Shown here in pieces: positions 12,202 to 48,571 of a DNA stretch of 64,000 nucleotides (positions within the stretch are counted from its first letter, which is position 1; each line of letters starts with the position of its first letter). A program made the translations under genes and the position numbers. Source of the stretch: PVC group bacterium (GTDB lineage Bacteria > Omnitrophota > Gorgyraeia > B26-G9); the NCBI GenBank assembly GCA_024231215.1, contig JAAEQR010000195.1, forward strand, positions 433,349 to 497,348, written 5' to 3'. The notes beneath the pieces are model-generated. The model was not told the origin of the DNA. It saw only the letters and a program-made list of their open reading frames with translations, and ran no database searches.

Positions 12202-12231
12202 CAAAATTATCCTTACCTATAAATCCCCCAC

Positions 12232-17220: not shown

Positions 17221-17270
17221 CACCTGCGCAAAAATTGTCGCGATGCGGCGAAAAATACGCATATTTTGCG
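17221..17270 (+). repeat. 50-bp direct repeat, copy 2 (candidate enhancer/UAS or REP-like element)
   Basis: Perfect copy of 12152..12201. Lies 27 nt after the SecA-like stop and ~100-150 nt upstream of the sigma-54 promoter at 17370. Confidence 0.9.
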
Positions 17271-17369
17271 TATTTTTATTCTCGTCAATAAAACCCTCCA
17301 AAACTCAAAACATAACAGCTTTGTTTTTAAGTAGTTATGATTTATGTTTTATTTATAAAATCATATTTC

Positions 17370-17385
17370 TGGCATGATATTTGCT
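17370..17385 (+). promoter_or_regulatory. sigma-54 (RpoN) -24/-12 promoter of the giant gene
   Basis: TGGCATGATATTTGCT matches the consensus TGGCACG-N4-TTGCW with correct GG/GC spacing. An RBS (aaggagt) and the ATG at 17430 follow ~45 nt downstream. Confidence 0.65.
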
Positions 17386-17429
17386 TTTATAAAATAGACT
17401 GAATATAACTATCACAAAGGAGTAAGATC

Positions 17430-20400
17430 ATGAAGAGACTAATAACGATTGGATTGATTCTGAGTATCTGGTGTTTTAGCGCAATTTTGGTGTATGCCGG
17501 AGATGGGGATTTTGCTATATACCGGGAAGCTACAGGTGGGGAAGCTTCAACCGCAACCGCTGCTGATGTTACTTGGGATACTACGGTAAGTGCTGATGCT
17601 ACTTTTTCAATTAGTGCTAACACTTCTGTGGATCTTTCTGAGGGAGGTCATTATTTTGTTATGTACAATATTGGCTGGTTGGGGTCTGGTGGAAACAGGC
17701 GTTCTGAGCAACAGATGTGGCTTAATTTAGCTGGAAGTGAAATTGTCTGGGGGCGCTCAACGGGATATATACGTCGGTCAAATGCAATGGAGGCCTGGCA
17801 ATTTGGTGCAGCGATTATTAATGCGAATGCTGGTGATGATCTAAAAATAGTTGAACAGCGTACTGATACTTATCCAACTATGGTAACAAATAGAATTGCG
17901 AATTCCAGCAGTTTAATGGTTTTAAAATTAAATGATAATTGGGATTATGCTCGGATTAGTGAAGCTGGCGGGGGGCAAGCTTTTAGTAGTACTACTGCTA
18001 CTGCTGTTACTTGGGATACCAATGATGAATTAGATACCGGCTCATTTACTCATACCGGAGATACTGATCAGATTACATTAAAAACAGCAGGACATTATCT
18101 AGTTACAGCAAATATTGAAATGCTAACTTCGGGGACATCCAGAACTGCTGGTAGTATGTATTTGTCTTTAGATGGGACTGAAATTGATGGCACAAGGACA
18201 ACAAGTTATATTAGAGGAACAGATGGTACAAATAATAACACTGCTGTTTTTTCTGGAATAATTGAGACTTCATCTGCAGACCAAGTTTTACGAGTAATGA
18301 TGTATGAGAAAACTGGATCTAATCCGACAATTGTTGCTAATAAAGCCGGTATTACTATTGTAAAATTACCAGACACTGCTGATTATGTCCGTTTAGTTAA
18401 AACTACTACTCAGGCAGTTGACGGTACCGATGACCCGATTACTTGGGATTCCCAGGTTGAGCTGGATACTGGTAGCTTTGGTAATTCTTCAAATCTAGTT
18501 ACTTTTACTCAGGATTCTGATTATCTTTTCCTGGCTACTTTTTGGGCTGATGGCACAACGAATAATAGTCGTAATTATCCTCATTGGGAGTGGCGAAAAA
18601 GCGGTACAAAAATCCAATATGGTTCGGGTGGTAAATATAGCCGTGGTACTGGCAGTGCTGAGGCCGGAAATAGTTTAGGCTTAATTGCGCATGGTATTAC
18701 TACCAGTAATAATATTGATATTGTTAACACCGATGAAACTAACAAAGATGATGCCGAAAGACTTTTTCAGGCCAATAGAATGGCTTTGCAGGCAATTAAT
18801 ATGAAAGCTTTTTTACCTCCGGTAATTACCGATGCTGCTGATGAGGTTTTTTATAATACTGAAACTTCGGTTACAATTACCGGGGACAGATTCCGGACGA
18901 CTAAGGGAACTGGAAAATTAGAACTCTGTGATTCTGCAACCTATGCTACAGCTAATAAGATCGAGCAAACTACTACAGCTTGGGGAAATACTTCGATTGA
19001 TTTCACAGTAAATCGTTCTACTTTAGCCGAAGGGACTTTGTATCTATTTATTACTAATGATGATGGTCAGATTACCGGAGGCTATTCTGTCGAAGTATAT
19101 GATTTGCCGGCTATTACAAATGTCAGCCCATCAACATTTGTGGACACTGATACGGGGATTGATATTACCGGTTCAAATTTTAATGCTGCTCAAGGATCAG
19201 GAATTGTTGAATTAGGGAATGCTGCTACATATGCAGGATCTACGACAAAAGTCAGTCAAACTGTTACTGGTTGGGCAGAAGGCTCAATTACTTTTACTGC
19301 TGTTCAAGGAGCTCTTGGTGGTGGTGATGTTTACGTTTATGTTACTGATGATTATGGACATGTTTCGAGTGGGTATCAGGTTAAGTTAGCGGCAAATCCT
19401 TTAATTACAGATATTGATGATGAAGTTTTTTATGATGGGGAAACTTCAGTTACCATAATCGGAGATGCTTTTTATGCAGCAAAAGGAACCGGTAAAGTTG
19501 AATTAGCTGACTCGGCGACTTATGCAACTGCTAACAAAGTCGAGCAAACTACTACTAGCTGGGGCAATAGTTCAATTGATTTTACAGTTAACCGCAGTAC
19601 TCTTTCTGAAGGCTCTTTATATGTTTTTGTTACTAATGATGACGCTTTGACTTCAGCCGGATATGCTGTTTATGTATATGATTTACCAAGTATATCAGGT
19701 GTTGATCCTACATCATTCATGGATAGTGATACAGGGATTGATATTAGTGGAGCTGATTTTGGCGCCTCTCAAGGTACCGGAATTTTAGAAATAGGAGATG
19801 CCGCAACTTATGCTGCATGTGTAACAAAAGTCAGTCAAACAGTTACTAGCTGGGCAGATGATACGATTACTTTTACTGCGGTGCAGGGAGCTTTAACTCC
19901 GGGTACAGTATATTTGTATGTTACGGATGATAATGGCCATGTTTCAGCTGCTCAATCAGCTACTTTAACTGTGCCGCCGCCGCCGTCTATTACTTTAGTT
20001 GACCCGGCGGGATTTACAAATAATGATCCTGGTATTGAAATCACGGGAAGTTATTTTGACGCATCTCAAGGTACGGGAAAAGTCGAATTAGGAGATGCTT
20101 CCACATATGGATCTTGTACTATTTTAGAAGAACAGACAATAACTTCCTGGGCTTCGGATACGATTACTTTTACTGCAGTAAGAGGAGCGCTTACTCCGGG
20201 CGGTGTTTATCTTTATGTTACTAATGATGATTCAGATACCTCTACCGGAACTTCAGTTAATATCGCGGCAGAACCAATTCCTGAGGGGACAAAACTGGGA
20301 GCTTATCAGGCTGCTGGAAGTGCTAGTGGTACGACTTCACGTAGTAGATATATGGCAATGACTTCTCCGGATATTGATAATATTCGAATTATTAAATTTG

Positions 20401-23400
20401 GGCATAAAAGCAATGTTGCTGGTTCAATGCGCATGGGGTTATATGTGGGTGGAGCAATTGGGAATCCGGATAATGCAACATTGGCAGCTGATTCCGGTCA
20501 AGTTACTCATGATGGGGGCGGGAGTTGGCAGGAATTTGACCTTACAACTCCTTACGATTTAGCGAAAAATACACAATACGGGGTGGCTTGGAAAACTGAC
20601 GGAGCATCTTATTATTTTGATAATACTTCATTAGGAAATTTAGAGGATTGCGATCAATACTGGGAGAATCTTACTAATGAGCCGGCTAATTCAACAAATG
20701 CTTTTCAAGGTACACTAAATGTAGCTTCTACCTATGACTATACATATTTACATTATATTGTTTATGTGCGTTATCCTACGCTTAGTTCTGTTTCCGAGAC
20801 TTATATTGATGATGGAGATCTGGCGATCCAGGTCAATGGGGTGGGTTTTGAGGATGATAATGAGTTTGGTAATAGTGCAAATAAGATTTATTTAGGTGAT
20901 GCGGCTACTTATGCGGCATGTTCGACTTTAGTTGAGCAGACATTCACAGCCTGGGCAGATGCTCAGATCACTTTTAATGTATCAAAAGGTGATTTGAGTG
21001 ATGGTACAGTTTATGTCTATGTAATAAATGATAATAGCCAGGTCAGTGATAATGGACAATCAGTTATTTTAGATGTTAATACTCCGACTAATCCGACAGC
21101 TCCGGCTTCGGGATGGGATGTTAGCGGTAAGACAAATGCTTTAACTAATAATACCTGGGGAGGTCATGCTTCGGCTTATTTTGAATGGACCGGGGCTGAT
21201 GATAGTGGAGGTAGTGGGGTTAGCGGATATTCAGTTTATTGGGGCACGGATTCCGGCGGAGAACCTGGAGTAACGCAAGATCAGGCGGGGAGCTCCTATG
21301 ATGCCGGAGCAATTTTATTCGATGGTATTTATTATTTAAGGGTAAGAACTTTTGATAATATTGGGAAATTTAGTGAGCCGATAACATTATTTACTTATAA
21401 ATATGATAAGACTGATCCAGTTAATCCAACATCTCCATCCGGGGCTTGGTATACATCTTCAAAAATAGATTCCTTAATAGATGATACTTGGCAAAATGAT
21501 GATGAAACTCCGTATTTTGAATGGTCCGGGGCAACTGATGCAACCAGCGGAGTTAGTGGATATTCAGTTTATTGGGGAACTGCAATAGATGGGGAACCTG
21601 GATTAATACAAGAACAGGTAGTTACAACTTTGGGAGAAGTTTCGGCTACTGGCGATAATACGTATTATTTAAGGATAAGAACATTTGATTTTGCGGGAAA
21701 TTATTCGGATATAGTAAACTTATTTACGTGTAAATTTGATAATACTGTTCCAGCAAATCCGACAGCTCCGGCTTTGGCTTGGGATTCCTCAGGTAAATCA
21801 ACTGGTCTTACTGATAATACTGTCCAAAACATTGATGATACTCCATATTTTGAATGGTCTGGGGCAACTGATGCAACTAGCGGAGTTAGTGGATATTCAG
21901 TTTATTGGGGCATAGCTATAGATGGCGAGCCGGAAATTACTCAGGAGCAAACTGCTATTAGTTATGATATTAGTACTCCTACCGGGGATGCTACTTATTA
22001 TTTAAGAGTGAGGACTTTTGATAATGCAACAAATTATAGTGATGCGATAACTGTCTTTACCTTTATATATGATAGCCAAAAGCCTACAGTGCTTATTGAA
22101 GTCAGTCCAGATCCAACCGGATCAATTCCTTCTGGCAGCTTAGAATTTAAATTAACTTTTTCAGAAACCATGGATATCGGAACAACTCCAACAATAACAT
22201 ATGATCCTAGCGGTGCTACCGGAGTGCAATCTGTTTCCACCGGCGGCAGTTGGTCAACTACTACTTATTCTAATGATACATATACTGTTTATAATGATAA
22301 TGCAATTACTTCTACAACTGGTGATGGAGTAGCGACAATTAGTGTTACTCAAGCCAAAGATCCAGCAGATAATACTATGGATGCAGATACTGACGATTCT
22401 TTTGATATTGATAGTGCTATGCATCATTTTAGAGTTGAGCATGATGGCTCAGGATTGATCAATGTTGCTGAACTCCTAACGATCACTGCAGTAACCCAGG
22501 GGGGGAATACTGCGATTGATTATACTGGAACAATTACTGTTAGTACTCAAGGTGAAACTGCGCAAATTAGCTGGGATGTAAATACCGGAACAAACGCTAT
22601 TAATGATGGCGGGGCGGGAAATGATTCAGCAACCTATTTATTTGATGCAGCAGATAATGGAGTAGTTGTTTTGGAGATGATCTCTACTGCTCCGGATACC
22701 TTAGATATTGAAGTAGATGATACTACTTATACCGATGATGATACCGAAGGTAATATTGTAATTTCAAGTTATGCTTTAGATCATTTTGTTATATCTCATG
22801 ATAATTCAGGAGAAGCTGGGGTTGGGGAGAATGTTACGGTTACTGCGATCAATACCGAAAGTCAAACTAAAACAGATTATGTTGGAACAATAACTTTGGA
22901 TACAACGGGAACATCCACTGCAATTGGCTGGTCATTATCATCAGGCAACGGAATATTTAATGATGGTGGTGGAGCAAGTGATACTGCAACTTATAATTTT
23001 AATATTAATGATAATGGGGTGGCGACATTTATTTTTACCGGGACAAAAGTAGAAACCTTGGATATTGATGTTGCTGATGGGGCAGAAACTGATGATGAAT
23101 CAGAGGGAACAATGGCTATAAGTCCTTCAGCGATTGATCATTTTGATATTACTCATGATAATAGTGCAGTAGCTGGGGGCGCAGAGAATGTTACGATCAC
23201 AGCAAAAGATGCTTATGAAAATATTAAAACTAATTTTACCGGGACAGTGACTTTGGATACTGATGGAGATGTTAATGCTGTTTCCTGGGCTGAGGATGCG
23301 GGTAATCAGGGGACTTTTAATGATGGTGGTTCTGGGGTTGCTTCAGCGACATATACTTTTGCCTTAGCTGATAACGGTACAGCTGATTTTACTATCACTG

Positions 23401-29400: not shown

Positions 29401-32400
29401 AGGCTGATGAAAATAGTGAAGGGACTTTAAGTTTTACTTCAAGTTATATTGTTATTGATAATTTAGATTCCGGTTATACGGAAAATGCTACAGATAATGA
29501 CTGGACAACTCAAACAGCTGGAAATGAATACAGTTCAGATTGGCGACGGGATACAACTTTTAATGATGGTGACTGGGCTCGTTGGACTCCAGATATTGAC
29601 TTAAATGGTAACTATGAAGTATTTGCTTATTGGTCAAGTAATGGTGCAGCAAATGCTACGGATGCTCCATATACTATATATTATAATGGCGGCAATGATA
29701 CAGTTGATAAAAACCAGGAAGTTGCGGGAAATATGTGGAATACTTTAGGGACTTATGAATTCATTTCAGGTACTAGCGGCTATGTTCAGTTAGATGATTC
29801 AGCTAATGATGATCTAAGTGCAGATGCAATAAAATTTGAGCTTCGTGGAAGTGCTAATGCTAGTGCCAATAGTGTAACAACTGATGCGGTAGAAGCTGGA
29901 GAATCAGATATTTTGATTTTGGATTTTACAGTTACTAATAATTATACAGAAAACGATACAGTAAATTCTATTACAATGAATAATAATGGCACTGTAAGTG
30001 ACTCAGATATTATTTCTATCAAACTTTTTTATGATAGCAATAATTCATATGATTATAGTCCGGGAGTAGATAGCCAAATAGGTACAGGAACATTTTCGTC
30101 TGGCACAAAAACATTTAGCGGGTTAAATATTACTGTTCCAGGTGCTGGGACTAAGGATTTCTTTGTGGTTTTAGCAATAGATTCTGATGTTGCTCAGGAT
30201 GTAACTTTGGATGTTCAGATTCCAATAGATGGAATTACGTTGGCTAATGCTCCTGAGGTGGAGGATTCGATCATTAACTCTAGTGGAACAAGAACAGTAT
30301 CCTTGGTGCTTGATTATTTTGTAATTGCTCATGATAATGCAGCTAATGCTGGAACTTCAGAGGATATTACGGTTACTGCCAAAGACCAATATGGCAATAC
30401 AGTTACATCTTATGAAGGAACAATAACTTTAGATACCAATGGAACTGTAAATACGATCACCTGGGCTCTTGATACAGGCAATGGTTCTTTTGATGATGGC
30501 GGAGCTTTGGCGGATACTGCGACTTATACTTTTAATAATAGTGATAATGGAATAGCTGTATTTACAATTAATGATACAAAAACTGAAACAATTAATATTG
30601 CTGTTTCTGGAAGCGGAAAGAGTGATGAGAATAATGAAGGGGATTTGGTTGTATCAGCTGGAACTTTAGCTCATTTTGATGTGGATATTGACAATAGTGC
30701 TATTGTCGGTTTGGCTGACTTAGTTACAGTTACTGCTCATGATGTAAATCACAATATAATTGAAAATTATACAGGAACAATAACCCTAGATACTAATGGT
30801 ACAGAAGATACGATTACCTGGGGGCTTAATTCTGGGTTTGGAAATTTTACTGATAATGGAGTTTTAGTAGATACTGCGACTTATGAATTTGATTCTTCAG
30901 ATAATTCCACAGTTGTATTTTTAATAACTGATACTATGGCTGAAACAATTAATATTGCAGTCAGTGGAGATGGACAACAGGATTATGATGATGAAGGGAA
31001 TTTAGTTTTTCAAACAGGAAGCATTGACCATTTTCTCATTGCTCATGATGGAAGTGCCCAGGCTGGGGTAGTAGATAATATTACGATCACAGCTAAAGAT
31101 GCATATGAAAATACTTTGGTTAACTATACCGGACAAATAACAGTGGATACAGATGGTACTGCAGCGACAATCGAATGGGCAAAAGTTACCGGAAACGGCA
31201 CTTTTAATGACGGCGGGTTAAGTGTAGATACTGCTACATATACTTATAATTCTTCAGATAATGGGGTGGTTGTATTATCAATAAAAGATACAACATTAGA
31301 AAGTTTGAATATTGCTGTTTCTGGGGATGGTAAGAGTGATGATGATACTGAAGGACTGATTAGTATAGGAACTGGAGTGATTGATCATTTTGCTATAAGC
31401 CATGATGGTTTCGCGATGCAGAACCAGACTGAGGATATTACAATTAAAGCCTATGATGCTTATAATAATATAAAAACAGATTATACCGGAGAGATAACCG
31501 TAGATACTGATGGTTCGGGTGATATTACCTGGGCATTGGATACCGGTGGGGGAGTTTTTAATGACGGGGGCGGGGGAGATGATACTGCGACTTATACTTA
31601 TGTCGGGGGTGATAGTGGAGAAGTAGTTTTATCAATTACTGATTTGTCAGCGGAAATTATAAATATTTCTGTAAGCGGGGATACAAAGACAGATGATGAT
31701 AATGAAGGGGTTTTAGAAGTTGTTGCAGCTGGATTTCATCATTTCAAGATTACGCATGATGGTAATGCTGTGACTGGAGTAGCGGAACAGATTACAATTA
31801 CCGCCAAAGATGTGAGTGATGATACGGTAACAAATTATGCTGGTACAATGACCGTAGATACAAATGGAACTGCTACAGCTATAGCCTGGGGTTTAGATAC
31901 TGGTAATGGTACATTTAATGATGACGGGGCGGGAGTGGATACAGCAGATTATACGTTTAATGCATCAGATAATGGTGTAGTAATCCTGACGCTTACTGAT
32001 ACAAATCAGGAAACAATAAATATTTCTGCTTCCGGAAGCGGTAAGACGGACGATAATACAGAGGGTAGTTTAGTTATTAATCTGGCTGGTATTGATCATT
32101 TTATAATATCTCATGACGGAGCTGCATTTGCTGGTATGGCAGATGATGTTAATATTACCGCAAAAGATGCGAATAGTGCGACGGTTACTAGTTATACAGG
32201 TACGATTACTATAGACACAAGCGGGACTTCGGGAACAATCACTTGGGCACTGGTAACCGGTGATGGTTCTTTTAATGATGGAGGAGCAGCTGTAGATACG
32301 GCGGATTATACATTTGTTTCCGGAGATAATGGTGTTGTTACGCTGAGTATAAATGATACGACCGCGGAAACTCTAAATATTTCTGTGAGCGGTGATGGGA

Positions 32401-35400
32401 AAACAGATGACAATACTGAGGGAAATATGATTATAAGTCATTCTGTGATTGATTATTTTGCTGTTTTGCATGATGGAGAAGCTGAGGCCGGAGTGGCAGA
32501 AGAAATCACAATAGAAGCAAAGGATGAATATGGTAATACATTAGTTGATTATACGAGTCAAATCACGGTTGATACTAATGGAACTCCGGGTACTATTACT
32601 TGGGGGAAGACTACCGGAGACGGGGTTTTTAATAACGGTGGAGCAGGTGTTGATACAGCAACTTATACCTTTGCTGCATCTGATGACGGAGTGGTGGTAT
32701 TGAATATTACAGATACTACAGTAGAAACTTTAAATATTTCTGTAAGTGGTGACAGTAAAACAGATAATGATACTGAAGGCGATTTGAACGTAGGTTCCGG
32801 AGCTTTAGAAGAATTTATAATTTCGCATGATGGTACAGCAGTTGCCGGGACCCAGGAAGCAATTACAGTTACTGCATATGATACTTATAGCAATATCAAA
32901 ACGAATTATACCGGACAGATAACTTTAGATACTAATGGTACCCAAGCTGCAATAAGCTGGGCTTTAAGCTCCGGGGTAGGAACGTTTAATGACGGTGGAG
33001 CAAGTGTGGATACAGCTACATATACTTTTGTCTCGGCTGATAATGGTACAGCTACGTTTATGATCACTGATACAAAAGCAGAAACCATTGATGTGAATGT
33101 AAGCGGTAGCGGAAAATTTGATGATGATTCAGAAGGGACCTTAGTTGTTTCTCCGGCAGTACTCAATGATTTTAAAATATCTCATGATGCTCAGGCAATA
33201 GCGGGTACATCGGAAAATATTACTATTTATGCTAAAGATTCCTATGGGAATACAAAGACTGATTATACCGGACAAATAATCGTGGATACAAACGGTACAG
33301 AAACTACGATTACCTGGGCATTAGTTACCGGTAACGGTACTTTCAATGATGATGGAGCAAGTGTAGATACAGCTGATTATACATTTGACGCAAATGATAA
33401 TGGGGAAGTAATATTGTCCATAAATGATACAACAGCGGAAGTAATAAATATATCGGTAAGTGGTAATAGTAAATTTGATGATGATACCGAAGGTAACTTA
33501 ACTGTAAATTCTGCGGTGATTGATTGCTTTGTAATCGTGCATGACGGTTCTGCGGTGCAATCTGTAGGAGAACTAATAACTGTTACAGCTAAAGATCAAT
33601 ATGCGAATAGTAAGGCTGATTATACCGGGACTATAACTTTAGATACTAATGGTGATGCGAATAATATCGCATGGGCATTGAACACAGGATCCGGGGTTTT
33701 TAATGATGGTGGTGCATCAGTGGATACTGCTACTTATGCTTATGTATCCGGGGATAGCGGGGTGGCTTTATTTGAAATTACGGATAATACAGCCCAGACA
33801 ATTAATATTTCCGTAAGCGGGGACGGTCAAACAGATGATGATACAGAAGGAAACCTGGTAGTACAGGCTTCTTCGACTACGGTTAGCGGGAGTGCAAATA
33901 CACTTACTTCTTATTATGTTCCTTCTGCGGTCAGCGGCAAATTAGTGCTTGATGTTACTTTGACCAATAATGATGTCCTTAGTACTGATACTTTAGAGAG
34001 TATTACGATAAATAATGTCGGAACGATTATGGACAGCCAGGTTAATTTGGTTAAATTATATTATGATAGTAATAATTCTAGTAGCTATACTCCGGGGGTG
34101 GATAATGAAATTGGGTCCGGAACTTTTTCAGGAGGAAGTATTACGTTTAATAATGTGAATGTTCAATTATCTGAGGCTGGAACAGAAGAGATATTTGTGA
34201 CTATTGATTTAAAAGCTGGCGTTAGTAACGGAGTAACTGTTGATGCTAGTATTCCTGTGGATGGTATGAATTTTGCCAATGCACCTGATTCTGAAAGTAT
34301 AATTCTTAATTCTTCCGGAAACTTGACTGTAGATTCCGCAACTCCGGGGGAAGTAACCAATTTGGCTACATCAAGCCATAACAATGCTACCAGTGCCTGG
34401 GATGATCCTCAGTCAAGAGATGATACGGTTTATGTGAGCTGGACCCCGGCTTTAGACAGTGGTAGTGGTATTGACGGTTATTCAATTCTTTGGGATACAA
34501 GTCCAACTACTTTACCGGATACAACCCAGGAGATAGAAGAAAGTATTACGGCTCAGACCAGTGCTGAATTGGCTGTGGGGAATGCCCACTATTTTCACAT
34601 TAGGAGTATAGACAAGGTAGGGAATTGGGATGATCAAGCAGCGCATATAGGACCTTTTTATATTGATACGACTTCTCCTGTTTCCACATCTATTTATCAG
34701 ATTACAGAATACGCTGGAGGAGATTATCTTTATGTGAGTGGTAATACAGTTTATTATTCCGGAGTTGGGTATTCTGCGTTTCGTGTTTTTGTGGAAGCAG
34801 CAGATGGTATATCTGCTCTTAAAGAAGCTGTATTTCCAACTACTACAAGTGCCGGAGGCACCGATGCAACAGAAGAAAGCGGTGCTTACGAATATATATA
34901 TACATATGAAGTAACCGCTGCCGGGAACAGCTATAATGATGTAAATGTTGCAGTATCTGATGTTGCGGGAAATACGACTAATGTTTCGTTTAGTGTGGTA
35001 TTGGATGAAACATCTCCGGCGACAGTAGCTTCTTTGAGTTCAAGTACACATACTCCAAGTGTTACTTCGGCTGATAATGATGTTACTTTGAACTGGACAG
35101 ATGCGAGTGATGCTGCAGCAGGTTTAGCCGGATATAGTATAGTTATAGATACAGCCTCAGACACATTGCCTCCACAATATAAAAATGTTAACAACGGGGT
35201 GGAGACATATATAGAAAGCGATCTTGATAACGGAACCTATTATGCTCATATCCGTCCGGTGGATAATGTGGGTAATTGGACGGCAAGCGCGACTCATGCC
35301 GGACCCTATATTGTTGGTCGCGGTTCTCTTGATGCATCTATTGCTGCTTCTCAGGCTGTGGTTAGTACGGATCAACAGTTTATGGTAACTATGACTGTTG

Positions 35401-37853
35401 ATAATACGGGTGATGCTAGTATTAGTGACGTTGATATTTCTAGCCTTACGGTTACAGGTACAAGCGGAGCTTCTGCAACGACCGGTTCTAACCCCGCTTC
35501 TCAGGATATTTCTTCTTCAGATCAGAAGCAATTTCAGTGGACTTATACGGCCGGATCTTCCAGCGGTACGATAAATTTTAAAGGTTCAGCCCAGGGTACG
35601 GACCAGGAAGGTTCAATTATTTCAGATATTGTTATTTCATCTGATATTGTGGTTGAAGAAAAAGCAGCTTTGAGCGTTGCTGCTTCGGCAAGTCCAAGTA
35701 CTGCAAATACAAACGAAACAATAACAATTACAGTTACGGTAACCAATAGCGGAGCAGCGGATGCATTAACCGTAGCACCAAGTTTGACCCCTTCGGGAAC
35801 AGCTAGTCCAGCTATAGATAGCGGTCCTAGCCCGGCTAATGCTACAGTTGGGGGAGGTAAATCTAAAGATTTTACGTTTACTGCGCATGGGACAGCTGCG
35901 GGAACAGCTACATTTACGGCAAACTTAACTTCTGGTACAGATGAAAATTCCGGAGATAATTTGTCAGTTACAGATGATGCTGATTCTGTAACTGTGGAGA
36001 CTCCGATTCCTTTTGAATTAACTTCATTGGTCAGTGCAACTCCTGTTGCCGTAAATACTTCAGAAACGATTACCGTAACTATGAGTGTGCAGAATACAGG
36101 TGCCAATAGTATAGCTAATGTGACACCTTCTTCTTTGGTAGTAGGCGGAACATCTTCGGATGCGGTTTATGCTACTGGGCCGGTTCCGGCTAATGTGGCT
36201 AGTTTAGCATCTGGTGCTAGTCAAAATTTTACCTGGACATATACAGCAGGAACTACGTTAGGAACTGTGAACTTTAGCGGAAACGCAGTAGGGACAGAGG
36301 CTTCTTCGACCTCAAATAGTTCCAGCGATATTACGATTCAGGCTGCTCCTGCAACATTAACCTCAACGATTAGTTCTTCTCCGACTAGCTTGCTGACTAA
36401 TGCTTCGATTACCGTAACTATGACAGTTACTAATACTGCTTCTGCAGGTGGAGCAGCCTCAGACGGAACAGGTCCTTCAAATCTCAGTTTAGATGGGACA
36501 AGCGGAGAAGCTAACTTATTAACCGGGCCGATTCCGGTAAGCGCGGATATTGCTGCCGGAGCTAGTCAGGATTTTGTCTGGACATATCGGGCTGGAACTA
36601 CAGCGGGTACAGTAAATTTTAGCGGGAATGCTTCCGGGACAGATGGAAATTCAGGAGCAGATGTTTCATCAACTTCTAATAGTTCAAACAATGTCACCAT
36701 AAGTACATTATCTCCGGATTGGATGTATCCGACCGGGACTGATGTTACCGGTCCGGTGCGTGGTGTTCCGATTGCTTATTGGGGGATGCGTAATTATATT
36801 TATTTTGGTTCTGATGACAATAATCTTTATGTACTTGACGGTGATACACATGAATTGGTTTTTGCATTTACCAGTTCCGGTATGATCCGGGGATTGCCGT
36901 ATCCATCCAGTGAGACTAAAGGAGCGGGGACCGAAGATGTTGTTTACTTTGGTACTTTGGGTAAGACGATATATTCGTTATGGGCGGATAATTCTTTGAA
37001 TTGGGAACGGGTAATGGGTGAAGAGCTTTCTACGACTATTTTATATGATTATGTTTCCGGTGTGTATTTTGGCACAAAAAGTAATAGAATATATTGTCTT
37101 GATTCTACTGACGGAACTGATGGCTGGGCAGCTCCGGCTGATGTGGGTGGTAGTGTTGAGTCTGATCCGGCAATGATTTATGTTCCTACGCTTGACTATG
37201 ACGAAGTATACTTTGGAGCTAGTGACGGAAAGATATACGCGTTTAAAGCTGCAGACGGAACCGGAGCACGTTCTTTTGATACAGGGTTTGGCGAGACAGG
37301 GGCAATAAAAACAGCTCCGTTTATTTCAAATCAGGAGCCGGGGAATAGTAGTTCGCGTCGTCTTGTATTCTTTGGCACAGCTAACGGCAGATTTTATGCG
37401 GTTAATACCGCTAATTTAAGTGCAAGTACGGCTGAGACCGGATGGGATACAAACCCGGTAGTTGTCGGAGACGCTGTATATTCTTCACCGTGGGTGGATG
37501 CAGATACCGATTGTGTATATTTCGGTTCACAGGACGGTAAGATTTATGCTTTAAATCTTGCGGATGGAACTTCTAAGGCTAATTTCCCGGTAGATATTGG
37601 TTCACCGATTGATTCTGCGCCGTTGGTGGAAAATGGAGTTATTTATTGTGGAGCAGATAACGGTAAGTTTTATGCTGTAGATATAGCTACTGGGACTCTT
37701 GTTCCGGGGTGGCCTTATGATACCGGAGATGCAATAAAAGGCGGTGCGGCATTACACTTGATTTATGATACGGAGACTTGGGATGTAATAGATACCTATG
37801 TTCTTGTTGGGTCTGATTCAGGTAAAATATATTCTTTTCAAGCGGTACAATAA
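17430..37853 (+). CDS. giant secreted multi-repeat surface protein (6,807 aa): IPT/TIG, FN3-like, Big_5-like and ~35 tandem Ig-like repeats, CARDB-like repeats, CBM-like module, C-terminal PQQ beta-propeller
   Basis: Single uninterrupted ORF with signal peptide MKRLITIGLILSIWCFSAILVYA|GDG. 3x ~155-aa N-terminal repeats (…VTWDT…). 7 IPT/TIG-like units (…ITGxxFxxxxGTGKVELxDxATYA…). 3 FN3-like units (…GVSGYSVYWGT…YYLRVRTFD…). Big_5-like (…LEFKLTFSETMD…). ~35 units of …HFxIxHDxxAxAGxxExxTxTAKDxYxNxKTDYTGxITxDTNGTxxxITWAxxTGNGTFNDGGASVDTATYTFxxxDNGVxxxxIxDTxxExxNISVSGDxKTDDDTEGxLxV…. 5 CARDB/DUF11-like units (…TVTNTGxxxxxxVxPS…WTYTAGT…GTVNFSGNAxGT). C-terminal PQQ-type propeller repeats (…VYFGSxDGKIYAxxxxDGT…). 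Domain names are from sequence pattern memory, not HMM. Confidence 0.85.
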   Translation: MKRLITIGLILSIWCFSAILVYAGDGDFAIYREATGGEASTATAADVTWDTTVSADATFSISANTSVDLSEGGHYFVMYNIGWLGSGGNRRSEQQMWLNLAGSEIVWGRSTGYIRRSNAMEAWQFGAAIINANAGDDLKIVEQRTDTYPTMVTNRIANSSSLMVLKLNDNWDYARISEAGGGQAFSSTTATAVTWDTNDELDTGSFTHTGDTDQITLKTAGHYLVTANIEMLTSGTSRTAGSMYLSLDGTEIDGTRTTSYIRGTDGTNNNTAVFSGIIETSSADQVLRVMMYEKTGSNPTIVANKAGITIVKLPDTADYVRLVKTTTQAVDGTDDPITWDSQVELDTGSFGNSSNLVTFTQDSDYLFLATFWADGTTNNSRNYPHWEWRKSGTKIQYGSGGKYSRGTGSAEAGNSLGLIAHGITTSNNIDIVNTDETNKDDAERLFQANRMALQAINMKAFLPPVITDAADEVFYNTETSVTITGDRFRTTKGTGKLELCDSATYATANKIEQTTTAWGNTSIDFTVNRSTLAEGTLYLFITNDDGQITGGYSVEVYDLPAITNVSPSTFVDTDTGIDITGSNFNAAQGSGIVELGNAATYAGSTTKVSQTVTGWAEGSITFTAVQGALGGGDVYVYVTDDYGHVSSGYQVKLAANPLITDIDDEVFYDGETSVTIIGDAFYAAKGTGKVELADSATYATANKVEQTTTSWGNSSIDFTVNRSTLSEGSLYVFVTNDDALTSAGYAVYVYDLPSISGVDPTSFMDSDTGIDISGADFGASQGTGILEIGDAATYAACVTKVSQTVTSWADDTITFTAVQGALTPGTVYLYVTDDNGHVSAAQSATLTVPPPPSITLVDPAGFTNNDPGIEITGSYFDASQGTGKVELGDASTYGSCTILEEQTITSWASDTITFTAVRGALTPGGVYLYVTNDDSDTSTGTSVNIAAEPIPEGTKLGAYQAAGSASGTTSRSRYMAMTSPDIDNIRIIKFGHKSNVAGSMRMGLYVGGAIGNPDNATLAADSGQVTHDGGGSWQEFDLTTPYDLAKNTQYGVAWKTDGASYYFDNTSLGNLEDCDQYWENLTNEPANSTNAFQGTLNVASTYDYTYLHYIVYVRYPTLSSVSETYIDDGDLAIQVNGVGFEDDNEFGNSANKIYLGDAATYAACSTLVEQTFTAWADAQITFNVSKGDLSDGTVYVYVINDNSQVSDNGQSVILDVNTPTNPTAPASGWDVSGKTNALTNNTWGGHASAYFEWTGADDSGGSGVSGYSVYWGTDSGGEPGVTQDQAGSSYDAGAILFDGIYYLRVRTFDNIGKFSEPITLFTYKYDKTDPVNPTSPSGAWYTSSKIDSLIDDTWQNDDETPYFEWSGATDATSGVSGYSVYWGTAIDGEPGLIQEQVVTTLGEVSATGDNTYYLRIRTFDFAGNYSDIVNLFTCKFDNTVPANPTAPALAWDSSGKSTGLTDNTVQNIDDTPYFEWSGATDATSGVSGYSVYWGIAIDGEPEITQEQTAISYDISTPTGDATYYLRVRTFDNATNYSDAITVFTFIYDSQKPTVLIEVSPDPTGSIPSGSLEFKLTFSETMDIGTTPTITYDPSGATGVQSVSTGGSWSTTTYSNDTYTVYNDNAITSTTGDGVATISVTQAKDPADNTMDADTDDSFDIDSAMHHFRVEHDGSGLINVAELLTITAVTQGGNTAIDYTGTITVSTQGETAQISWDVNTGTNAINDGGAGNDSATYLFDAADNGVVVLEMISTAPDTLDIEVDDTTYTDDDTEGNIVISSYALDHFVISHDNSGEAGVGENVTVTAINTESQTKTDYVGTITLDTTGTSTAIGWSLSSGNGIFNDGGGASDTATYNFNINDNGVATFIFTGTKVETLDIDVADGAETDDESEGTMAISPSAIDHFDITHDNSAVAGGAENVTITAKDAYENIKTNFTGTVTLDTDGDVNAVSWAEDAGNQGTFNDGGSGVASATYTFALADNGTADFTITDTKTESIDIDVSGSGKYDSDEEGLLLVTPGSINYFIIVHDNSAAAGVAEGLTVTSYDQYDNIKTDYTGEITLDTDGTATSITWALDTGNGIFADGGGLLDTATYTYDAADSGVATFTITDTTQESLDIDISGDANDNDSEGNLIVGLPVISYFVVLHDGAANAGVTENVTVTAKDSLGATMTSYVGQIQLDTNGTATTIVWALDTGDGTFNDGGASVDTALYTYDAADNGVAVFSIIDNTQETINIAVTGDGKTDNNTEGNLIVGVPLLSHFTISHDGNADAGVDENVTVTAKDTVDSTKTDYTGQITLDTNGTSGTITWALDTGNGTFNDGGALVDTATYNYTGSDNGVAIFTINDTTAESLDIDVSSGGIVDDETEGNLIVATGALDYFLIEHDNAAVINISELVIVTPRDSQNNIITDYTGQITLDTNTSSPSGITWTLLSGNGSFVDGGGSVDTATYTYALADSGTASFSIKSSSLETINLAVSGDGENDDNTEGNLVVGNAAELTWGMVDAVQAYATTTTSGRMISGYSPNISNMIITKLASHHGSTGSTRIGCWTGGVSGDPTGATLLVQTGNETVSSTGWAEHDVTDTPWPKNTRTWSGYALSGAAISYANNGAYNEDYDESHGRTHQPAGLSTNPATAHQNITGDGAEAAFWYYMHVMYTIEPGVNAISNSVISSSVDVGSSDKIILDLSLTNDSVTADTITAVTINNVGTASDSDISSVKLYYDSNNSEDYSPGADTQVGSGVFSSGTKTFSNLSINIDANLGTEELFVVVDISNSATPGNTIDVAIPANGITLSGTGTIEDAALNSSGNRSIVMLLDHFTISHDTAGLAGSDESITIMAKDSYGNTKIDYTGTINIDTTGTAGSIAWALSSGSGVFNDDGASVDTCDYTFSGADNGVVVLSLNDTISETLNISVSGDTKTDDNTEGDLVISPAPIHHFVIGHDNTAEAGIGESITVTAKDEFENTLVDYSSQITLDTNGSLDSISWTLSSGFGSFADGGGSVDTATYTFDETDDGVATFTMTDTISETINISVSGDTKTDDNTEGDLVVSAGTIDYFVISHDEVANAGIAETITITAKDSLGNTKADYIGTITIDTNGTVNTITWSDPGGNNGVFTEGGASVDTATYEYAADDNGEVTLNITDTKTEGLDISVTGDTKTDDDTEGDLTINPGVIDYFIVSHDGTAVTGISEDLIVTAYDAEDNIKTDYTGTITLDTNGTSTAITWTLKNGSGTLDDDGSNYDTADYTFNSSDLGTATFGIIDFAAETINVDVTGDAKTDDDTEGNLQFISSGIDHFLIVHDGDAIAGIAENITIYAKDANEDTITTYQGQITINTDGSATGIGWALNTGSGSFVDGGGTVDTATYTFDPTDNGVVILELTDTVEETIDISIVGEGKNDDDTEGVLEVNPAGMHHFNIVHDGNAQAGIADSITIQVHDANHNTVTDYTGEITVYTNGTATAITWAKQTGSGSFSEGGPTVDTATYTFVFQDNGVCVLTLADTKVETLNIGVSGGGKLDDDTEGALVVGPGLIDQFVITHDGGAIAGISDNVTIRAEDAYANLKTDYTGMITVDTNGTVDTIVWAKVVGNGTFLDGGASVDTATYTFDATDSGQCTLSVSDTIAESLNVSVSGDAKVDDDTEGDLVVTATSLDHFVVSHDNTAEAAVAESITITAYDIYENVKENYTGQITVDTSGTANAITWGLSVGNGTFLDGGASVDTATYTYADSDDGVVILTISDTVAQSIDVDCSGDAKTDDDTEGNLVVGATVINYFKVNHDELASAGVAENVTITAYDTYDNAKTNYTGTITVDTDGSADAITWAKITGGGSFVDGGGAVDTATYTYVAGDLGVVVLSITANAAESLDIDITGSSKSDDDTDNALVVSASTLEDFLISHDGQGVVNSGEPITITARDAYQNTKLDYTGEISVSVSGETGEITWAVANGAGSFADGGQYTDTANYTFHSNDEGVVILTLTDDEADTVNIAVSGGGKADENSEGTLSFTSSYIVIDNLDSGYTENATDNDWTTQTAGNEYSSDWRRDTTFNDGDWARWTPDIDLNGNYEVFAYWSSNGAANATDAPYTIYYNGGNDTVDKNQEVAGNMWNTLGTYEFISGTSGYVQLDDSANDDLSADAIKFELRGSANASANSVTTDAVEAGESDILILDFTVTNNYTENDTVNSITMNNNGTVSDSDIISIKLFYDSNNSYDYSPGVDSQIGTGTFSSGTKTFSGLNITVPGAGTKDFFVVLAIDSDVAQDVTLDVQIPIDGITLANAPEVEDSIINSSGTRTVSLVLDYFVIAHDNAANAGTSEDITVTAKDQYGNTVTSYEGTITLDTNGTVNTITWALDTGNGSFDDGGALADTATYTFNNSDNGIAVFTINDTKTETINIAVSGSGKSDENNEGDLVVSAGTLAHFDVDIDNSAIVGLADLVTVTAHDVNHNIIENYTGTITLDTNGTEDTITWGLNSGFGNFTDNGVLVDTATYEFDSSDNSTVVFLITDTMAETINIAVSGDGQQDYDDEGNLVFQTGSIDHFLIAHDGSAQAGVVDNITITAKDAYENTLVNYTGQITVDTDGTAATIEWAKVTGNGTFNDGGLSVDTATYTYNSSDNGVVVLSIKDTTLESLNIAVSGDGKSDDDTEGLISIGTGVIDHFAISHDGFAMQNQTEDITIKAYDAYNNIKTDYTGEITVDTDGSGDITWALDTGGGVFNDGGGGDDTATYTYVGGDSGEVVLSITDLSAEIINISVSGDTKTDDDNEGVLEVVAAGFHHFKITHDGNAVTGVAEQITITAKDVSDDTVTNYAGTMTVDTNGTATAIAWGLDTGNGTFNDDGAGVDTADYTFNASDNGVVILTLTDTNQETINISASGSGKTDDNTEGSLVINLAGIDHFIISHDGAAFAGMADDVNITAKDANSATVTSYTGTITIDTSGTSGTITWALVTGDGSFNDGGAAVDTADYTFVSGDNGVVTLSINDTTAETLNISVSGDGKTDDNTEGNMIISHSVIDYFAVLHDGEAEAGVAEEITIEAKDEYGNTLVDYTSQITVDTNGTPGTITWGKTTGDGVFNNGGAGVDTATYTFAASDDGVVVLNITDTTVETLNISVSGDSKTDNDTEGDLNVGSGALEEFIISHDGTAVAGTQEAITVTAYDTYSNIKTNYTGQITLDTNGTQAAISWALSSGVGTFNDGGASVDTATYTFVSADNGTATFMITDTKAETIDVNVSGSGKFDDDSEGTLVVSPAVLNDFKISHDAQAIAGTSENITIYAKDSYGNTKTDYTGQIIVDTNGTETTITWALVTGNGTFNDDGASVDTADYTFDANDNGEVILSINDTTAEVINISVSGNSKFDDDTEGNLTVNSAVIDCFVIVHDGSAVQSVGELITVTAKDQYANSKADYTGTITLDTNGDANNIAWALNTGSGVFNDGGASVDTATYAYVSGDSGVALFEITDNTAQTINISVSGDGQTDDDTEGNLVVQASSTTVSGSANTLTSYYVPSAVSGKLVLDVTLTNNDVLSTDTLESITINNVGTIMDSQVNLVKLYYDSNNSSSYTPGVDNEIGSGTFSGGSITFNNVNVQLSEAGTEEIFVTIDLKAGVSNGVTVDASIPVDGMNFANAPDSESIILNSSGNLTVDSATPGEVTNLATSSHNNATSAWDDPQSRDDTVYVSWTPALDSGSGIDGYSILWDTSPTTLPDTTQEIEESITAQTSAELAVGNAHYFHIRSIDKVGNWDDQAAHIGPFYIDTTSPVSTSIYQITEYAGGDYLYVSGNTVYYSGVGYSAFRVFVEAADGISALKEAVFPTTTSAGGTDATEESGAYEYIYTYEVTAAGNSYNDVNVAVSDVAGNTTNVSFSVVLDETSPATVASLSSSTHTPSVTSADNDVTLNWTDASDAAAGLAGYSIVIDTASDTLPPQYKNVNNGVETYIESDLDNGTYYAHIRPVDNVGNWTASATHAGPYIVGRGSLDASIAASQAVVSTDQQFMVTMTVDNTGDASISDVDISSLTVTGTSGASATTGSNPASQDISSSDQKQFQWTYTAGSSSGTINFKGSAQGTDQEGSIISDIVISSDIVVEEKAALSVAASASPSTANTNETITITVTVTNSGAADALTVAPSLTPSGTASPAIDSGPSPANATVGGGKSKDFTFTAHGTAAGTATFTANLTSGTDENSGDNLSVTDDADSVTVETPIPFELTSLVSATPVAVNTSETITVTMSVQNTGANSIANVTPSSLVVGGTSSDAVYATGPVPANVASLASGASQNFTWTYTAGTTLGTVNFSGNAVGTEASSTSNSSSDITIQAAPATLTSTISSSPTSLLTNASITVTMTVTNTASAGGAASDGTGPSNLSLDGTSGEANLLTGPIPVSADIAAGASQDFVWTYRAGTTAGTVNFSGNASGTDGNSGADVSSTSNSSNNVTISTLSPDWMYPTGTDVTGPVRGVPIAYWGMRNYIYFGSDDNNLYVLDGDTHELVFAFTSSGMIRGLPYPSSETKGAGTEDVVYFGTLGKTIYSLWADNSLNWERVMGEELSTTILYDYVSGVYFGTKSNRIYCLDSTDGTDGWAAPADVGGSVESDPAMIYVPTLDYDEVYFGASDGKIYAFKAADGTGARSFDTGFGETGAIKTAPFISNQEPGNSSSRRLVFFGTANGRFYAVNTANLSASTAETGWDTNPVVVGDAVYSSPWVDADTDCVYFGSQDGKIYALNLADGTSKANFPVDIGSPIDSAPLVENGVIYCGADNGKFYAVDIATGTLVPGWPYDTGDAIKGGAALHLIYDTETWDVIDTYVLVGSDSGKIYSFQAVQ
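22420..33870 (+). repeat. coding tandem-repeat array (~315-360 bp units) inside the giant gene
   Basis: About 35 near-periodic units. Some stretches are identical at DNA level between units (e.g. ttccttgatggcggagccagtgtagatactgctacttatac at ~28200 and ~28557). Confidence 0.8.
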
Positions 37854-41147: not shown

Positions 41148-41710
41148 TTTGTCCTCCTGACTCCCCTTCTTAATTTTTGCATAGTATTTAACGGATAATC
41201 GTCCTTGTTTTCGCCGGTATAGGCTGGGCTTATTGAAATAGTTTTCGGCTCATTATTATTAGCTGGCAATGGAGTACTGCTGAGACCGGCTTGTTTGAGT
41301 TTTAAATCAAATAGCTGGTTGTTGCGTTCCAATATAATTTTATTTTTCTGAATATCTTTAACTATATAGTTTTCGATGCTATCGTTTATCCCGACATAAA
41401 ATCCTTTATCCTGATTTTTCTTTTCGACGATGGCTTTGTACCCGTTTTTCAGATTTACTACTCCGGTCAGGATAAGATCTCTGGCTTTGGCAGATCCATC
41501 GTTACCCGGGAAGGCGCTTTGTATACCTGAACTCTGAACTTCGGCATTCAAATCTTTTGTGGGACGAAAAAAATTTCTTTTTTCAATAATTTCATAATAA
41601 GATAGAGGAGGGATGTTTTCTTGCGCGGTACAGTTTTGTAGTCCCCAGCACATAGCCCATAGACAAAAAATTGTTAATATAATAAAGATTTTTGATTCTT
41701 GTGTTTTCAT
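41144..41710 (-). CDS. PilP/GspC-like secretin-associated periplasmic protein (tentative)
   Basis: Small protein with N-terminal signal/lipoprotein-like segment (MKTQESKIFIILTIFCLWAMCWGLQNC), encoded between the PilO-like gene and the secretin. Likely start at 41710 overlapping the upstream stop as ATGA. Assigned by position only. Confidence 0.35.
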   Translation of the reverse strand: MKTQESKIFIILTIFCLWAMCWGLQNCTAQENIPPLSYYEIIEKRNFFRPTKDLNAEVQSSGIQSAFPGNDGSAKARDLILTGVVNLKNGYKAIVEKKNQDKGFYVGINDSIENYIVKDIQKNKIILERNNQLFDLKLKQAGLSSTPLPANNNEPKTISISPAYTGENKDDYPLNTMQKLRRGVRRTK

Positions 41711-42240: not shown

Positions 42241-42241
42241 G

Positions 42242-45099: not shown

Positions 45100-45110
45100 T
45101 GTTTCTTTAC

Positions 45111-47006: not shown

Positions 47007-47013
47007 TAAAGTA

Positions 47014-48569: not shown

Positions 48570-48571
48570 TC

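Follow-up and report, generated by a model that had tools for sequence, protein, structure and literature searches.

A giant secreted Omnitrophota protein with a predicted single-chain C1q/TNF-like head and a putative sigma-54 promoter: a candidate inducible fibrillar adhesin

Bacteria of the phylum Omnitrophota are ultra-small and probably live attached to other microbes or prey on them. Here we describe a stretch of 64,000 nucleotides (nt) of an Omnitrophota genome (assembly GCA_024231215.1, contig JAAEQR010000195.1, positions 433,349 to 497,348 of the forward strand), called the window below, and in it a gene at 17430-37853 (forward strand) that encodes a secreted protein of 6,807 amino acids (aa). 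With moderate confidence, we read this giant protein as an inducible fibrillar adhesin that has a swappable distal head and, we infer, a conserved C-terminal end near the cell.

Very long proteins of Omnitrophota are known to be encoded next to type II secretion/type IV pilus-like loci (West-Roberts et al. 2023, bioRxiv 10.1101/2023.11.21.568195; Nielsen & Lui 2026, bioRxiv 10.64898/2026.06.07.730766). The window protein is like them in that it comes from the same phylum, is very long and secreted, and lies beside a type II secretion/type IV pilus-like cluster. A role in binding another cell was proposed for those giants, as we propose it here. In contrast, the catalogued giants have at least 10,000 or at least 30,000 aa, and the window protein has no transmembrane helices past its leader and, in Pfam searches, neither dockerins nor TSP3 repeats nor enzyme domains. 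Compared with the Archaeovorin and Dockerin-type proteins in particular, it shares the adjacent type II secretion-like locus and lacks the length of more than 30,000 aa with numerous transmembrane helices. No internal SecA_DEAD domain was found in it by Pfam, nor were dockerin, TSP3 or enzyme domains. A divergent SecA_DEAD domain without a scaffold/wing domain is a further shared feature; it has been reported inside Omnitrophota giants, whereas at the window locus it belongs to a separate, non-conserved gene. Neither of the two papers mentions C1q, TNF or BclA heads, sigma-54 control or PQQ, and the word 'propeller', looked for in the 2023 paper only (10.1101/2023.11.21.568195), refers there solely to RCC1 and similar propeller repeats, in proteins from outside the Omnitrophota. 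An original prediction for this gene, made by a model from the sequence alone, had called open reading frames (ORFs) of this size rare and largely uncharacterised. This is partly fair, but giants beside type II secretion loci had already been described in the phylum (bioRxiv 10.1101/2023.11.21.568195; 10.64898/2026.06.07.730766). A giant ORF is in itself expected for Omnitrophota. What we regard as new is a family of single-chain C1q/TNF heads, the exchange of the head and a recurring sigma-54 circuit.

The fibrillar adhesins surveyed by Monzon & Bateman (PMC8286594, PMC9210967) are a second point of comparison. Like them, the giant protein is of great length, has beta-sandwich domains (TIG, FN3, Ig-like) arrayed in tandem as its stalk, and ends, away from the presumed anchor, in a domain of another type. 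Candidates for an adhesive part are this C1q/TNF-like head and the lectin-like inserts. It is very long and carries an export signal, and its stalk comprises 27 copies of a 119-aa repeat (R119), 6 TIG, 5 FN3 and 4 CARDB-like units. It has no Pfam anchor family and no C-terminal hydrophobic segment. Unlike the surveyed adhesins, which use sortase or type I/type V routes, it comes from a diderm, begins with a Sec leader and is encoded next to a type II secretion system. The term 'C1q' occurs in neither survey (PMC8286594, PMC9210967), and 'BclA' and 'TNF' are missing from the main text of the 2022 one.

C1q/TNF-like heads are known from the ends of other long fibres, namely Bacillus BclA, the Bdellovibrio MAT fibres Bd2439 and Bd2734 (PMC10769870) and phage tail-fibre tips. 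The MAT fibres display the head on the surface of the predator, and the TNF-like fibre tip of Bd2439 binds GlcNAc between protomers (PMC10769870). All of these are three-chain homotrimers in which the head is C-terminal on a collagen-like or beta-helical shaft. In the window protein, by contrast, one chain is predicted to give all three jelly rolls, which are N-terminal and sit on a monomeric stalk of Ig domains. Three tandem C1q domains occur in the mussel protein HcC1qDC6, an animal immune protein known from sequence (PMC5519582), and the viral proteins A0A1X9VNK7 and A0A6J5LW36 are predicted to be tandem C1q/TNF forms. In the literature we found no account of a head of this kind carried by a bacterial fibre with an Ig stalk.

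One new finding concerns the N-terminal part of the giant protein:

17499..18809, forward strand: head, aa 24-460, three tandem C1q/TNF/BclA-C-like jelly rolls (AlphaFold2)

A triplicated N-terminal domain had been predicted at about 155 aa per copy. A hidden Markov model derived from the protein's own repeats (self-HMM) confirms the three copies, each of about 140 aa, at aa 27-457. A search with aa 1-460 retrieved 21 proteins that carry all three domains in the same order. AlphaFold2, run on aa 24-460 with an alignment of those proteins, returned one compact body (pLDDT 92.7, pTM 0.94). In this predicted structure each subdomain has the jelly-roll fold and the three form a three-fold assembly, as in the C1q/TNF superfamily. 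On this prediction, the head is a natural pseudo-trimer in which one chain supplies three C1q/TNF-like jelly rolls. The model superposes on engineered single-chain C1q/TNF trimers (PDB 4zch, 5hzf, 5kca, 4dou) over 360-378 residues at 2.4-3.1 A, at a sequence identity of merely 9-19 %; these PDB examples are man-made fusions. Viral predicted structures are also similar (TM 0.81-0.88 to the head): a mimivirus protein matches at TM 0.88 and a 425-aa 'C1q domain-containing protein' of an uncultured tailed phage at TM 0.81/0.83. In PHROGs, the head gives only a marginal match to 'collagen like minor tail' (E 0.0018).

The triple head is a large uncharacterised family, as judged from sequence searches. 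Against 1.84 billion cluster representatives, the head profile has 2,759 matches at E<=1e-3, 1,075 at 1e-10 and 551 at 1e-30. Most span the whole triple unit in one stretch, in proteins of 279-7,622 aa, and a few proteins, such as P0031 (7,287 aa), match the profile in as many as three stretches. In 18 head-bearing loci from GTDB genomes (L003-L020), a sample that came from one degenerate search pattern and is biased, the head is usually N-terminal after a leader, in long ORFs. The stalks in these loci are unrelated to the window stalk, and one has cadherin-like domains. Two members of the family end in PEP-CTERM anchors. Eight of the 18 loci are in metagenome-assembled genomes (MAGs) of CPR/DPANN organisms (Peribacteria, Gracilibacteria, Saccharibacteria, Woesearchaeota, Aenigmatarchaeota). 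In L007 (3289-3888) and L017 (1018-2154), from unrelated MAGs binned as Anaerolineales and Roseibacillus, the long head-bearing protein has a PQQ-like propeller gene a few kb upstream; such propellers are common, and their proximity may be coincidence.

Behind the head, the giant protein is built of repeats, and in all it has about 54 beta-rich modules. Module counts are from self-HMMs, and Pfam cut-offs are gathering scores throughout. The remaining parts, all on the forward strand, are:

17430..17498, forward strand: Sec-type signal peptide, aa 1-23 (hydrophobicity; in head-family members a hydrophobic leader stands right before a conserved GDxAIYRE)
18819..20270, forward strand: five IPT/TIG units, self-HMM aa 464-943 (Pfam TIG 47.1 bits, cut-off 20.9; self-HMM)
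20271..20774, forward strand: module modA, copy 1, self-HMM aa 968-1060 (self-HMM; weak DUF4082 match)
20775..21074, forward strand: TIG 6, self-HMM aa 1116-1212 (self-HMM)
21084..22085, forward strand: three FN3 units, self-HMM aa 1219-1549 (PDB profile search; 67 % identity in L003, 55 % in L026)
22086..22421, forward strand: beta-rich domain of ~110 aa, aa ~1553-1664 (kept in L003, 73 %, and L026, 61 %)
22422..24920, forward strand: stalk block 1, seven R119, self-HMM aa 1665-2493 (self-HMM, fold prediction)
24921..25397, forward strand: modA, copy 2, self-HMM aa 2513-2603 (self-HMM)
25398..25877, forward strand: module modB (~150 aa), copy 1, self-HMM aa 2657-2797 (weakly like the N-terminal domain of BNR sialidases)
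25878..29447, forward strand: stalk block 2, ten R119, self-HMM aa 2817-4002 (self-HMM)
29448..29840, forward strand: Golvesin_C, aa 4007-4137 (Pfam 4.2e-23, 82 bits, cut-off 31.6)
29841..30311, forward strand: modB, copy 2, self-HMM aa 4136-4275 (self-HMM)
30312..33866, forward strand: stalk block 3, ten R119, self-HMM aa 4295-5478 (self-HMM)
33867..34334, forward strand: modB, copy 3, self-HMM aa 5480-5619 (self-HMM)
34335..35318, forward strand: FN3 unit 4, a ~110-aa domain at aa 5749-5856 and FN3 unit 5, self-HMM aa 5636-5960 (fn3 4e-5)
35319..36719, forward strand: four CARDB/DUF11-like repeats, self-HMM aa 5971-6424 (Pfam CARDB sub-threshold; counterparts in L021)
36720..37850, forward strand: C-terminal PQQ-like (BamB-type) beta-propeller, to aa 6807 (Pfam PQQ_2, PDB, L021)

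R119 makes up the stalk blocks, with its 27 copies in blocks of 7+10+10 at aa 1665-2497, 2817-4006 and 4295-5479 and with 35-48 % identity to copy 1. An AlphaFold2 model, for which the 27 paralogous copies served as the alignment, is a ten-strand beta-sandwich (pLDDT 92.6). Its top fold match is a GH2 Ig domain, a generic Ig-like fold; cohesin, invasin, intimin and filamin also match. R119 has no Pfam match at E<=5 and no PDB sequence-profile match. The model supports an Ig-like sandwich, with a likeness to cadherin and Big domains at the level of the fold only, and we rejected membership in either family for want of a Pfam or PDB sequence match. The original prediction was right about the Ig-like fold; it had put the repeats at about 35 copies of about 105 aa. 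R119 opens with a conserved D-x-F-x-x-x-H-D and closes with D-D-D-T-E-G, and these acidic clusters are at the domain ends. From these motifs, Ca2+-mediated stiffening of the stalk is plausible.

For the other modules, several predicted labels and counts were wrong. The TIG assignment passes in Pfam (47 bits), with six units in place of about seven, and there are four CARDB/DUF11-like repeats rather than five. The 3+2 FN3-like units, the two copies of a further module (modA, self-HMM), the C-terminal PQQ-type propeller (PQQ_2, 53 bits with a cut-off of 27.6) and the single carbohydrate-binding module (CBM)-like unit, which is Golvesin_C (Pfam 4.2e-23), are all as expected. Of the Pfam families named for checking, TIG and PQQ_2 pass, and fn3 and CARDB fall just below their cut-offs; the proposed Big_5-like unit, aa ~1553-1664, is without a Pfam match, and so, at E<=5, is modA copy 2. 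The fn3 score is 24.1 bits (cut-off 25), and the FN3 profile finds neogenin FN3 (8.6e-5) and chitinase A1 FN3 (2.6e-3) in the PDB. CARDB scores are 20.0-20.5 bits on the window repeats (cut-off 22.7) and 23.1 bits on the repeats of L021, which are 66 % identical. The propeller reaches 53.1 bits with PQQ_2 (cut-off 27.6), and its profile matches PDB 3hxj (5e-28) and BamB (4e-12). We rejected a function as a PQQ-dependent enzyme: there is no PF01011 match, and the NCBI name of the protein reflects the repeat type. The three copies of a ~150-aa module called CARDB-like do exist as modB. The CARDB-like label was dropped, as modB has no Pfam CARDB match and an hhalign probability of 0.5 % against the CARDB-like profile; the only lead is a sub-threshold BNR_assoc_N match. 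PDB sequence-profile searches gave nothing useful for modA, modB or the CARDB-like repeats.

The gene itself is intact. As predicted, 17430-37853 is a single ORF on the forward strand, with 6,807 codons, one stop at its end and zero Ns. At the base composition of the window about 7.3 % of random codons are stops, and the probability of no stop across 6,807 codons is about 1e-224. NCBI entry MCP4650974.1, from a 'PVC group bacterium', is the exact product, named 'PQQ-binding-like beta-propeller repeat protein'. It is alone in its 90 % cluster, and the source contig has 506,687 bp. The R119 copies (357-nt period) share just 60-74 % DNA identity, and Tandem Repeats Finder reports no array in the gene; because of both, collapse or expansion of the R119 array during assembly is unlikely. 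The leader consists of MKR, an 18-residue hydrophobic core and VYA|GD, in agreement with the predicted Sec signal peptide, and it is the sole strongly hydrophobic terminal segment. Residue counts agree with a protein described as rich in Thr, Ser, Asp, Gly and Asn and poor in Cys (T 13.8, G 10.4, D 10.2, S 9.3, N 6.6, C 0.24 %). The mature protein is computed to be ~707 kDa with a pI of ~4.05. A 187-aa antisense ORF (35543-36106, reverse strand) lies in the most GC-rich part of the gene and is most likely a chance frame.

Comparison with related loci indicates which parts of the protein are kept and which change. L021 is from contig JBDRPX010000004.1 of GCA_043826565.1; L026 and L023/L024 are on one contig, JAHITY010000072.1, of GCA_018817165.1; L003/L025 is a 5.3-kb Guaymas Basin contig (QMZY01000070.1). 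Two further loci, L027 and L028, have only FN3 units in common with the giant and are uninformative. In L021, a 6,242-aa protein encoded at about 71-90 kb of the contig has CARDB-like repeats 66 % identical and a propeller 75 % identical to those of the window protein; the C-terminal propeller is, among the comparable parts, the one most similar to L021. The giant ORF of L026 has three FN3 units, the ~110-aa domain, seven R119, modB, ten R119, modB and at least five more R119. At its N-terminus, an unrelated domain of ~240 aa takes the place of the C1q head. L003 has 81 aa of an activator C-terminus (67 %), the head (56 %), three FN3 units (67 %), the ~110-aa domain (73 %) and R119, and no TIG block between head and FN3. 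By these alignments, L026 follows the same stalk plan and L021 has the same C-terminal end, with N-terminal modules exchanged. We take the head to be the variable end because L026 swaps it while the propeller is the part closest to L021. L003 was deposited in a Candidatus Aenigmatarchaeota MAG, with the activator C-terminus at 3-242. It is probably a mis-binned Omnitrophota contig, since sigma-54 activators are known only from bacteria. As L003 is the closest relative, the window may likewise derive from hydrothermal sediment or plume of the Guaymas type.

The giant gene has a candidate sigma-54 promoter and, upstream, a candidate two-component system:

17370..17385, forward strand: sigma-54 -24/-12 element TGGCATGATATTTGCT, the sole TGGCAY-N5-TTGCW match in 64 kb
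17417..17422, forward strand: Shine-Dalgarno AAGGAG, read from the sequence, with the ATG 7 nt further on
8761..10731, forward strand: sensor histidine kinase (Pfam: weak dCache, HAMP, HisKA, HATPase_c), with a 49 % homologue at the same position in L026
10735..12129, forward strand: NtrC-type regulator (Response_reg, Sigma54_activat, HTH_8; Sigma54_activat 2.7e-71), 69 % in L026

The element TGGCATGATATTTGCT is 44 nt ahead of the giant ATG, with AAGGAG in between. By chance, 0.16 matches would be expected in the window, and 14 of 100 shuffles had at least one TGGCAY-N5-TTGCW match. Similar -24/-12 motifs stand upstream of the related genes in L003 (TGGCCTGATAATTGCA) and L026 (TGGCATAGCTATTGCT); the motif recurs in L003, and the motif with both regulators in L026. 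A sigma-54 promoter had been proposed for this gene, and the evidence agrees: the motif is unique in the window, it has GG and GC elements at consensus spacing, a kinase and an activator are adjacent, and the motif recurs in L003 and L026. At the level of sequence, sigma-54 control of the giant gene by the adjacent two-component system is well supported.

The upstream block of L026 is as in the window, with NTP_transf_5, a gene of unknown function, radical SAM, the kinase (49 %) and the sigma-54 activator (69 %). In the window, the first three (the NTP_transf_5 gene, a 266-aa unknown and a radical SAM/SPASM gene) occupy 5450-8798, just upstream of the kinase. Two more radical SAM/SPASM genes lie at 50197-51354 and 56503-57687 (-). 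Together, these genes may form a peptide-modification system.

Between the regulator and the giant gene is a gene for a SecA-like protein, flanked by a repeat:

12355..17193, forward strand: 1,612-aa SecA-like protein (Pfam: SecA_DEAD, PP_bind, P-loop_SecA)
12152..12227, forward strand: left copy of a 76-nt direct repeat, which has two copies only in the window
17221..17296, forward strand: right copy, 87 % identical, with the first 50 nt identical

Accessory SecA2 systems export large surface proteins in Gram-positive bacteria. The SecA-like protein is like these systems in that its motor matches SecA2 and SecA and its gene adjoins that of a giant surface protein. It is unlike them in that SecA2 and SecA match equally in the PDB (E 1e-82 and 2e-81), so that it has no assignment to the SecA2 group, and in its N-terminal extension of ~830 aa. 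This extension, without a family match, follows one N-terminal hydrophobic segment and precedes the SecA motor domains; there is no Pfam match to a scaffold or wing domain. No relatives were found in the scans of GTDB genomes and JGI metagenomes, and the few distant SecA-like homologues (L001, L002) sit in unrelated contexts. In L003 and L026 the gene is missing between the regulator and the giant gene, and a gene for an IS200-like Y1 transposase is there instead. Upstream of the SecA-like gene there is no match to the sigma-54 motif; the window's single match is downstream of it, ahead of the giant gene. We argue from these sequence comparisons that the SecA-like gene is a lineage-specific insertion and not a required exporter, because a direct repeat brackets it, it has almost no relatives, it is absent in L003 and L026, and it has no sigma-54 motif of its own. 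The absence from the same position in L003 and L026 also suggests that the giant family does not require it. We considered a dedicated, conserved exporter and rejected it, given the absence from this position in relatives and the direct-repeat flanks. The Y1 transposase ORF of L003 is flanked by its own direct repeat. L021 (20034-21722) has another giant gene, for 8,939 aa, which follows a few kb past the secretion cluster and has a Y1 transposase gene before it; here giant genes seem to move along with IS200-like elements.

Downstream of the giant gene are a small propeller gene and the secretion cluster:

37975..39108, forward strand: 377-aa secreted PQQ-like propeller protein (64 % in L021, 54 % in L023/L024; 25 % to the propeller of the giant)
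39381..44831, reverse strand: secretin GspD, a 202-aa unknown, T2SSM-like, a PilM-PilN fusion and a ParA-like ATPase (type II secretion/type IV pilus-like)
45093..50118, forward strand: GspE (MshEN), GspF and pseudopilins (T2SSJ-like, T2SSK-like) (family searches)

Three loci, which represent two other genomes, have the propeller gene and the type II secretion cluster in synteny with the window. The cluster at 39381..44831 is kept in L021 and L023/L024 at 43-85 % identity. In L021, the identities are 64 % for the propeller protein, 75 % for the secretin, 63 % for T2SSM, 47 % for PilMN, 85 % for the ParA-like ATPase and 69 % for GspE. In L023/L024, past a gap of ~6 kb from L026, the propeller protein (54 %) is again followed by the secretion cluster. 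The named top matches of the window GspE are all from Candidatus Omnitrophota/Omnitrophica, at 53-69 % identity, and assign the source MAG to this phylum. The ORF for GspE (45093-47006), read from a TTG, gives 637 aa, and the NCBI call gives 572 aa; a small MerR gene is found in the corresponding gap of L021 and L023. The MshEN domain binds c-di-GMP in related ATPases. Further on, at 53595-60420, are a GT2 glycosyltransferase, two PMT_2 genes (GT-C type; one with a TPR fusion) and a CDP-alcohol phosphatidyltransferase. Glycosylation of the fibre is conceivable, as Ser and Thr make up 23 % of the giant. Rfam and tRNA scans of the window were empty.

A mechanism for the adhesin can be pictured from these features. 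The kinase would sense an external cue and phosphorylate the activator, the sigma-54 promoter would open, and the fibre would be made on demand and exported by the Sec system. The three-jelly-roll head, a mimic of a homotrimer, would be the far tip and would recognise a ligand on a partner or prey cell. By analogy with the TNF-like tips of Bdellovibrio and phage fibres, this ligand is probably a surface glycan. The TIG, FN3 and 27 Ig-like repeats would form a stalk of roughly 150-200 nm (~50 domains at 3-4 nm each), which Ca2+ at the acidic inter-domain motifs may stiffen. Golvesin_C and modB, as lectin-like inserts, may give lateral contacts to glycans. The C-terminal propeller would be the cell-proximal end and would dock the fibre to the envelope, possibly through the 377-aa propeller protein encoded next to it. 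The adjacent type II secretion-like machinery may help in docking and may carry the fibre across the outer membrane. We place the head distally and the C-terminus near the cell because the head usually follows the leader and two family members end in PEP-CTERM anchors.

A sigma-54-driven, secreted surface fibre or adhesin is what the original prediction had suggested. The fibre of beta-sandwich repeats, with inserts of carbohydrate-binding type, stands, on folds, Pfam matches and promoter; the adhesin role we infer, in a protein that has no known anchor motif. That outline was broadly right, but it missed the single-chain C1q/TNF-like head, the different head of a relative and the fact that the SecA-like gene is not conserved.

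Several points weigh against an adhesin anchored in this way. Pfam finds no LPXTG, PEP-CTERM, T9SS C-terminal domain, autotransporter barrel or RTX match in the giant, and no transmembrane segment after the leader or hydrophobic segment at the C-terminus is present; attachment through the propeller is a conjecture. The head falls below the Pfam cut-off for BclA_C (28.3 with a cut-off of 38 bits) and has no Pfam C1q or TNF match, and for failing the BclA_C cut-off its assignment rests on the predicted structure. Other members of the family have the triple head inside the chain or at the C-terminus, and an N-terminal tip is therefore not universal. The flanking genes on both sides are also syntenic between these genomes, and adjacency to secretion genes may reflect shared ancestry rather than function. 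L021 covers the last ~700 residues only, and ~6 kb of the L026/L023 giant gene is outside the loci compared. The length of the stalk and its stiffening by Ca2+ are estimated only from the number of domains and from motifs.

Other explanations can be set against the adhesin. The giant could be a structural protein of the envelope or matrix, or one for self-aggregation (S-layer-like or a biofilm fibre), without specific recognition of a partner cell. Its acidic, Thr/Ser-rich, Cys-poor repeats are typical of matrix and surface-layer proteins, and there are glycosyltransferase and PMT_2-type genes nearby. However, a tightly regulated sigma-54 promoter argues against a constitutive layer, a swappable terminal head on a conserved stalk is the pattern of a recognition fibre, and the C1q/TNF fold is typically a ligand-recognition head; we consider this reading unlikely. 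A released or loosely attached scaffold seems a little less likely still. Here, as in a cellulosomal scaffoldin, R119 would recruit proteins in the manner of cohesins and the lectin-like inserts would tether the protein to polysaccharide. The absence of an anchor motif in the giant (Pfam, hydrophobicity) would suit such a scaffold, as would the CBM-like modules that punctuate the repeat blocks, and giant proteins with dockerins do exist in Omnitrophota. Yet there is no Pfam Cohesin or Dockerin match in the giant or in the scanned ORFs of the window. R119, at 119 aa, is shorter than typical cohesins, which have about 140-150 aa, and its top fold match is a generic GH2 Ig-like domain, with invasin, intimin and filamin scoring similarly.

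The fibre could also stand the other way round, with the N-terminal head at the cell and the C-terminal propeller as the distal binder, as in type I-secreted RTX adhesins. Beta-propellers can bind ligands, the triple head is internal or C-terminal in some family members, and the giant is without a known C-terminal anchor. We regard this orientation as quite improbable: the protein has a Sec leader instead of RTX repeats and type I secretion genes, and relatives with N-terminal heads end in PEP-CTERM anchors. In addition, the N-terminus varies and the propeller is closest to L021, whereas in adhesins the tips normally vary and the anchors are conserved. The ORF could, finally, be an assembly artefact or a pseudogene, with repeats that were collapsed or joined into a chimera and happen to stay open. 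This has little to recommend it beyond the origin in a short-read-era MAG, where repeat-rich genes misassemble easily. We think it very improbable, given a chance of ~1e-224 for so long an open frame, a source contig of 506 kb and repeats that are old and diverged, hence resolvable by short reads. The 7+10 block order also recurs in L026, and the 6,242-aa protein of L021 matches at the C-terminal region.

Tentatively, and with more doubt than for the inducible adhesin itself, we suggest that the giant is a fibre for the recognition of a host or prey, with an exchangeable N-terminal head that decides its specificity, similar to the tip swapping of phage receptor-binding proteins, and that the triple head is a widespread, undescribed cell-recognition module common to Omnitrophota, CPR/DPANN episymbionts, Verrucomicrobiota and viruses. 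If this is true, fusing three subunits in one chain would solve the problem of mounting a three-fold head on a monomeric stalk. The predicted head is a natural counterpart of the single-chain TNF/C1q trimers made by engineers, and is of interest for annotating long proteins now called 'hypothetical' and for the biology of fibres and adhesins. The published work cited above on long proteins of Omnitrophota centres on far larger, membrane-embedded, enzyme-rich giants. The window locus offers a simpler, testable candidate for partner recognition in these bacteria, with a defined, foldable head of 437 residues, a conserved propeller and its partner protein, and a relative that carries another head on a similar stalk.

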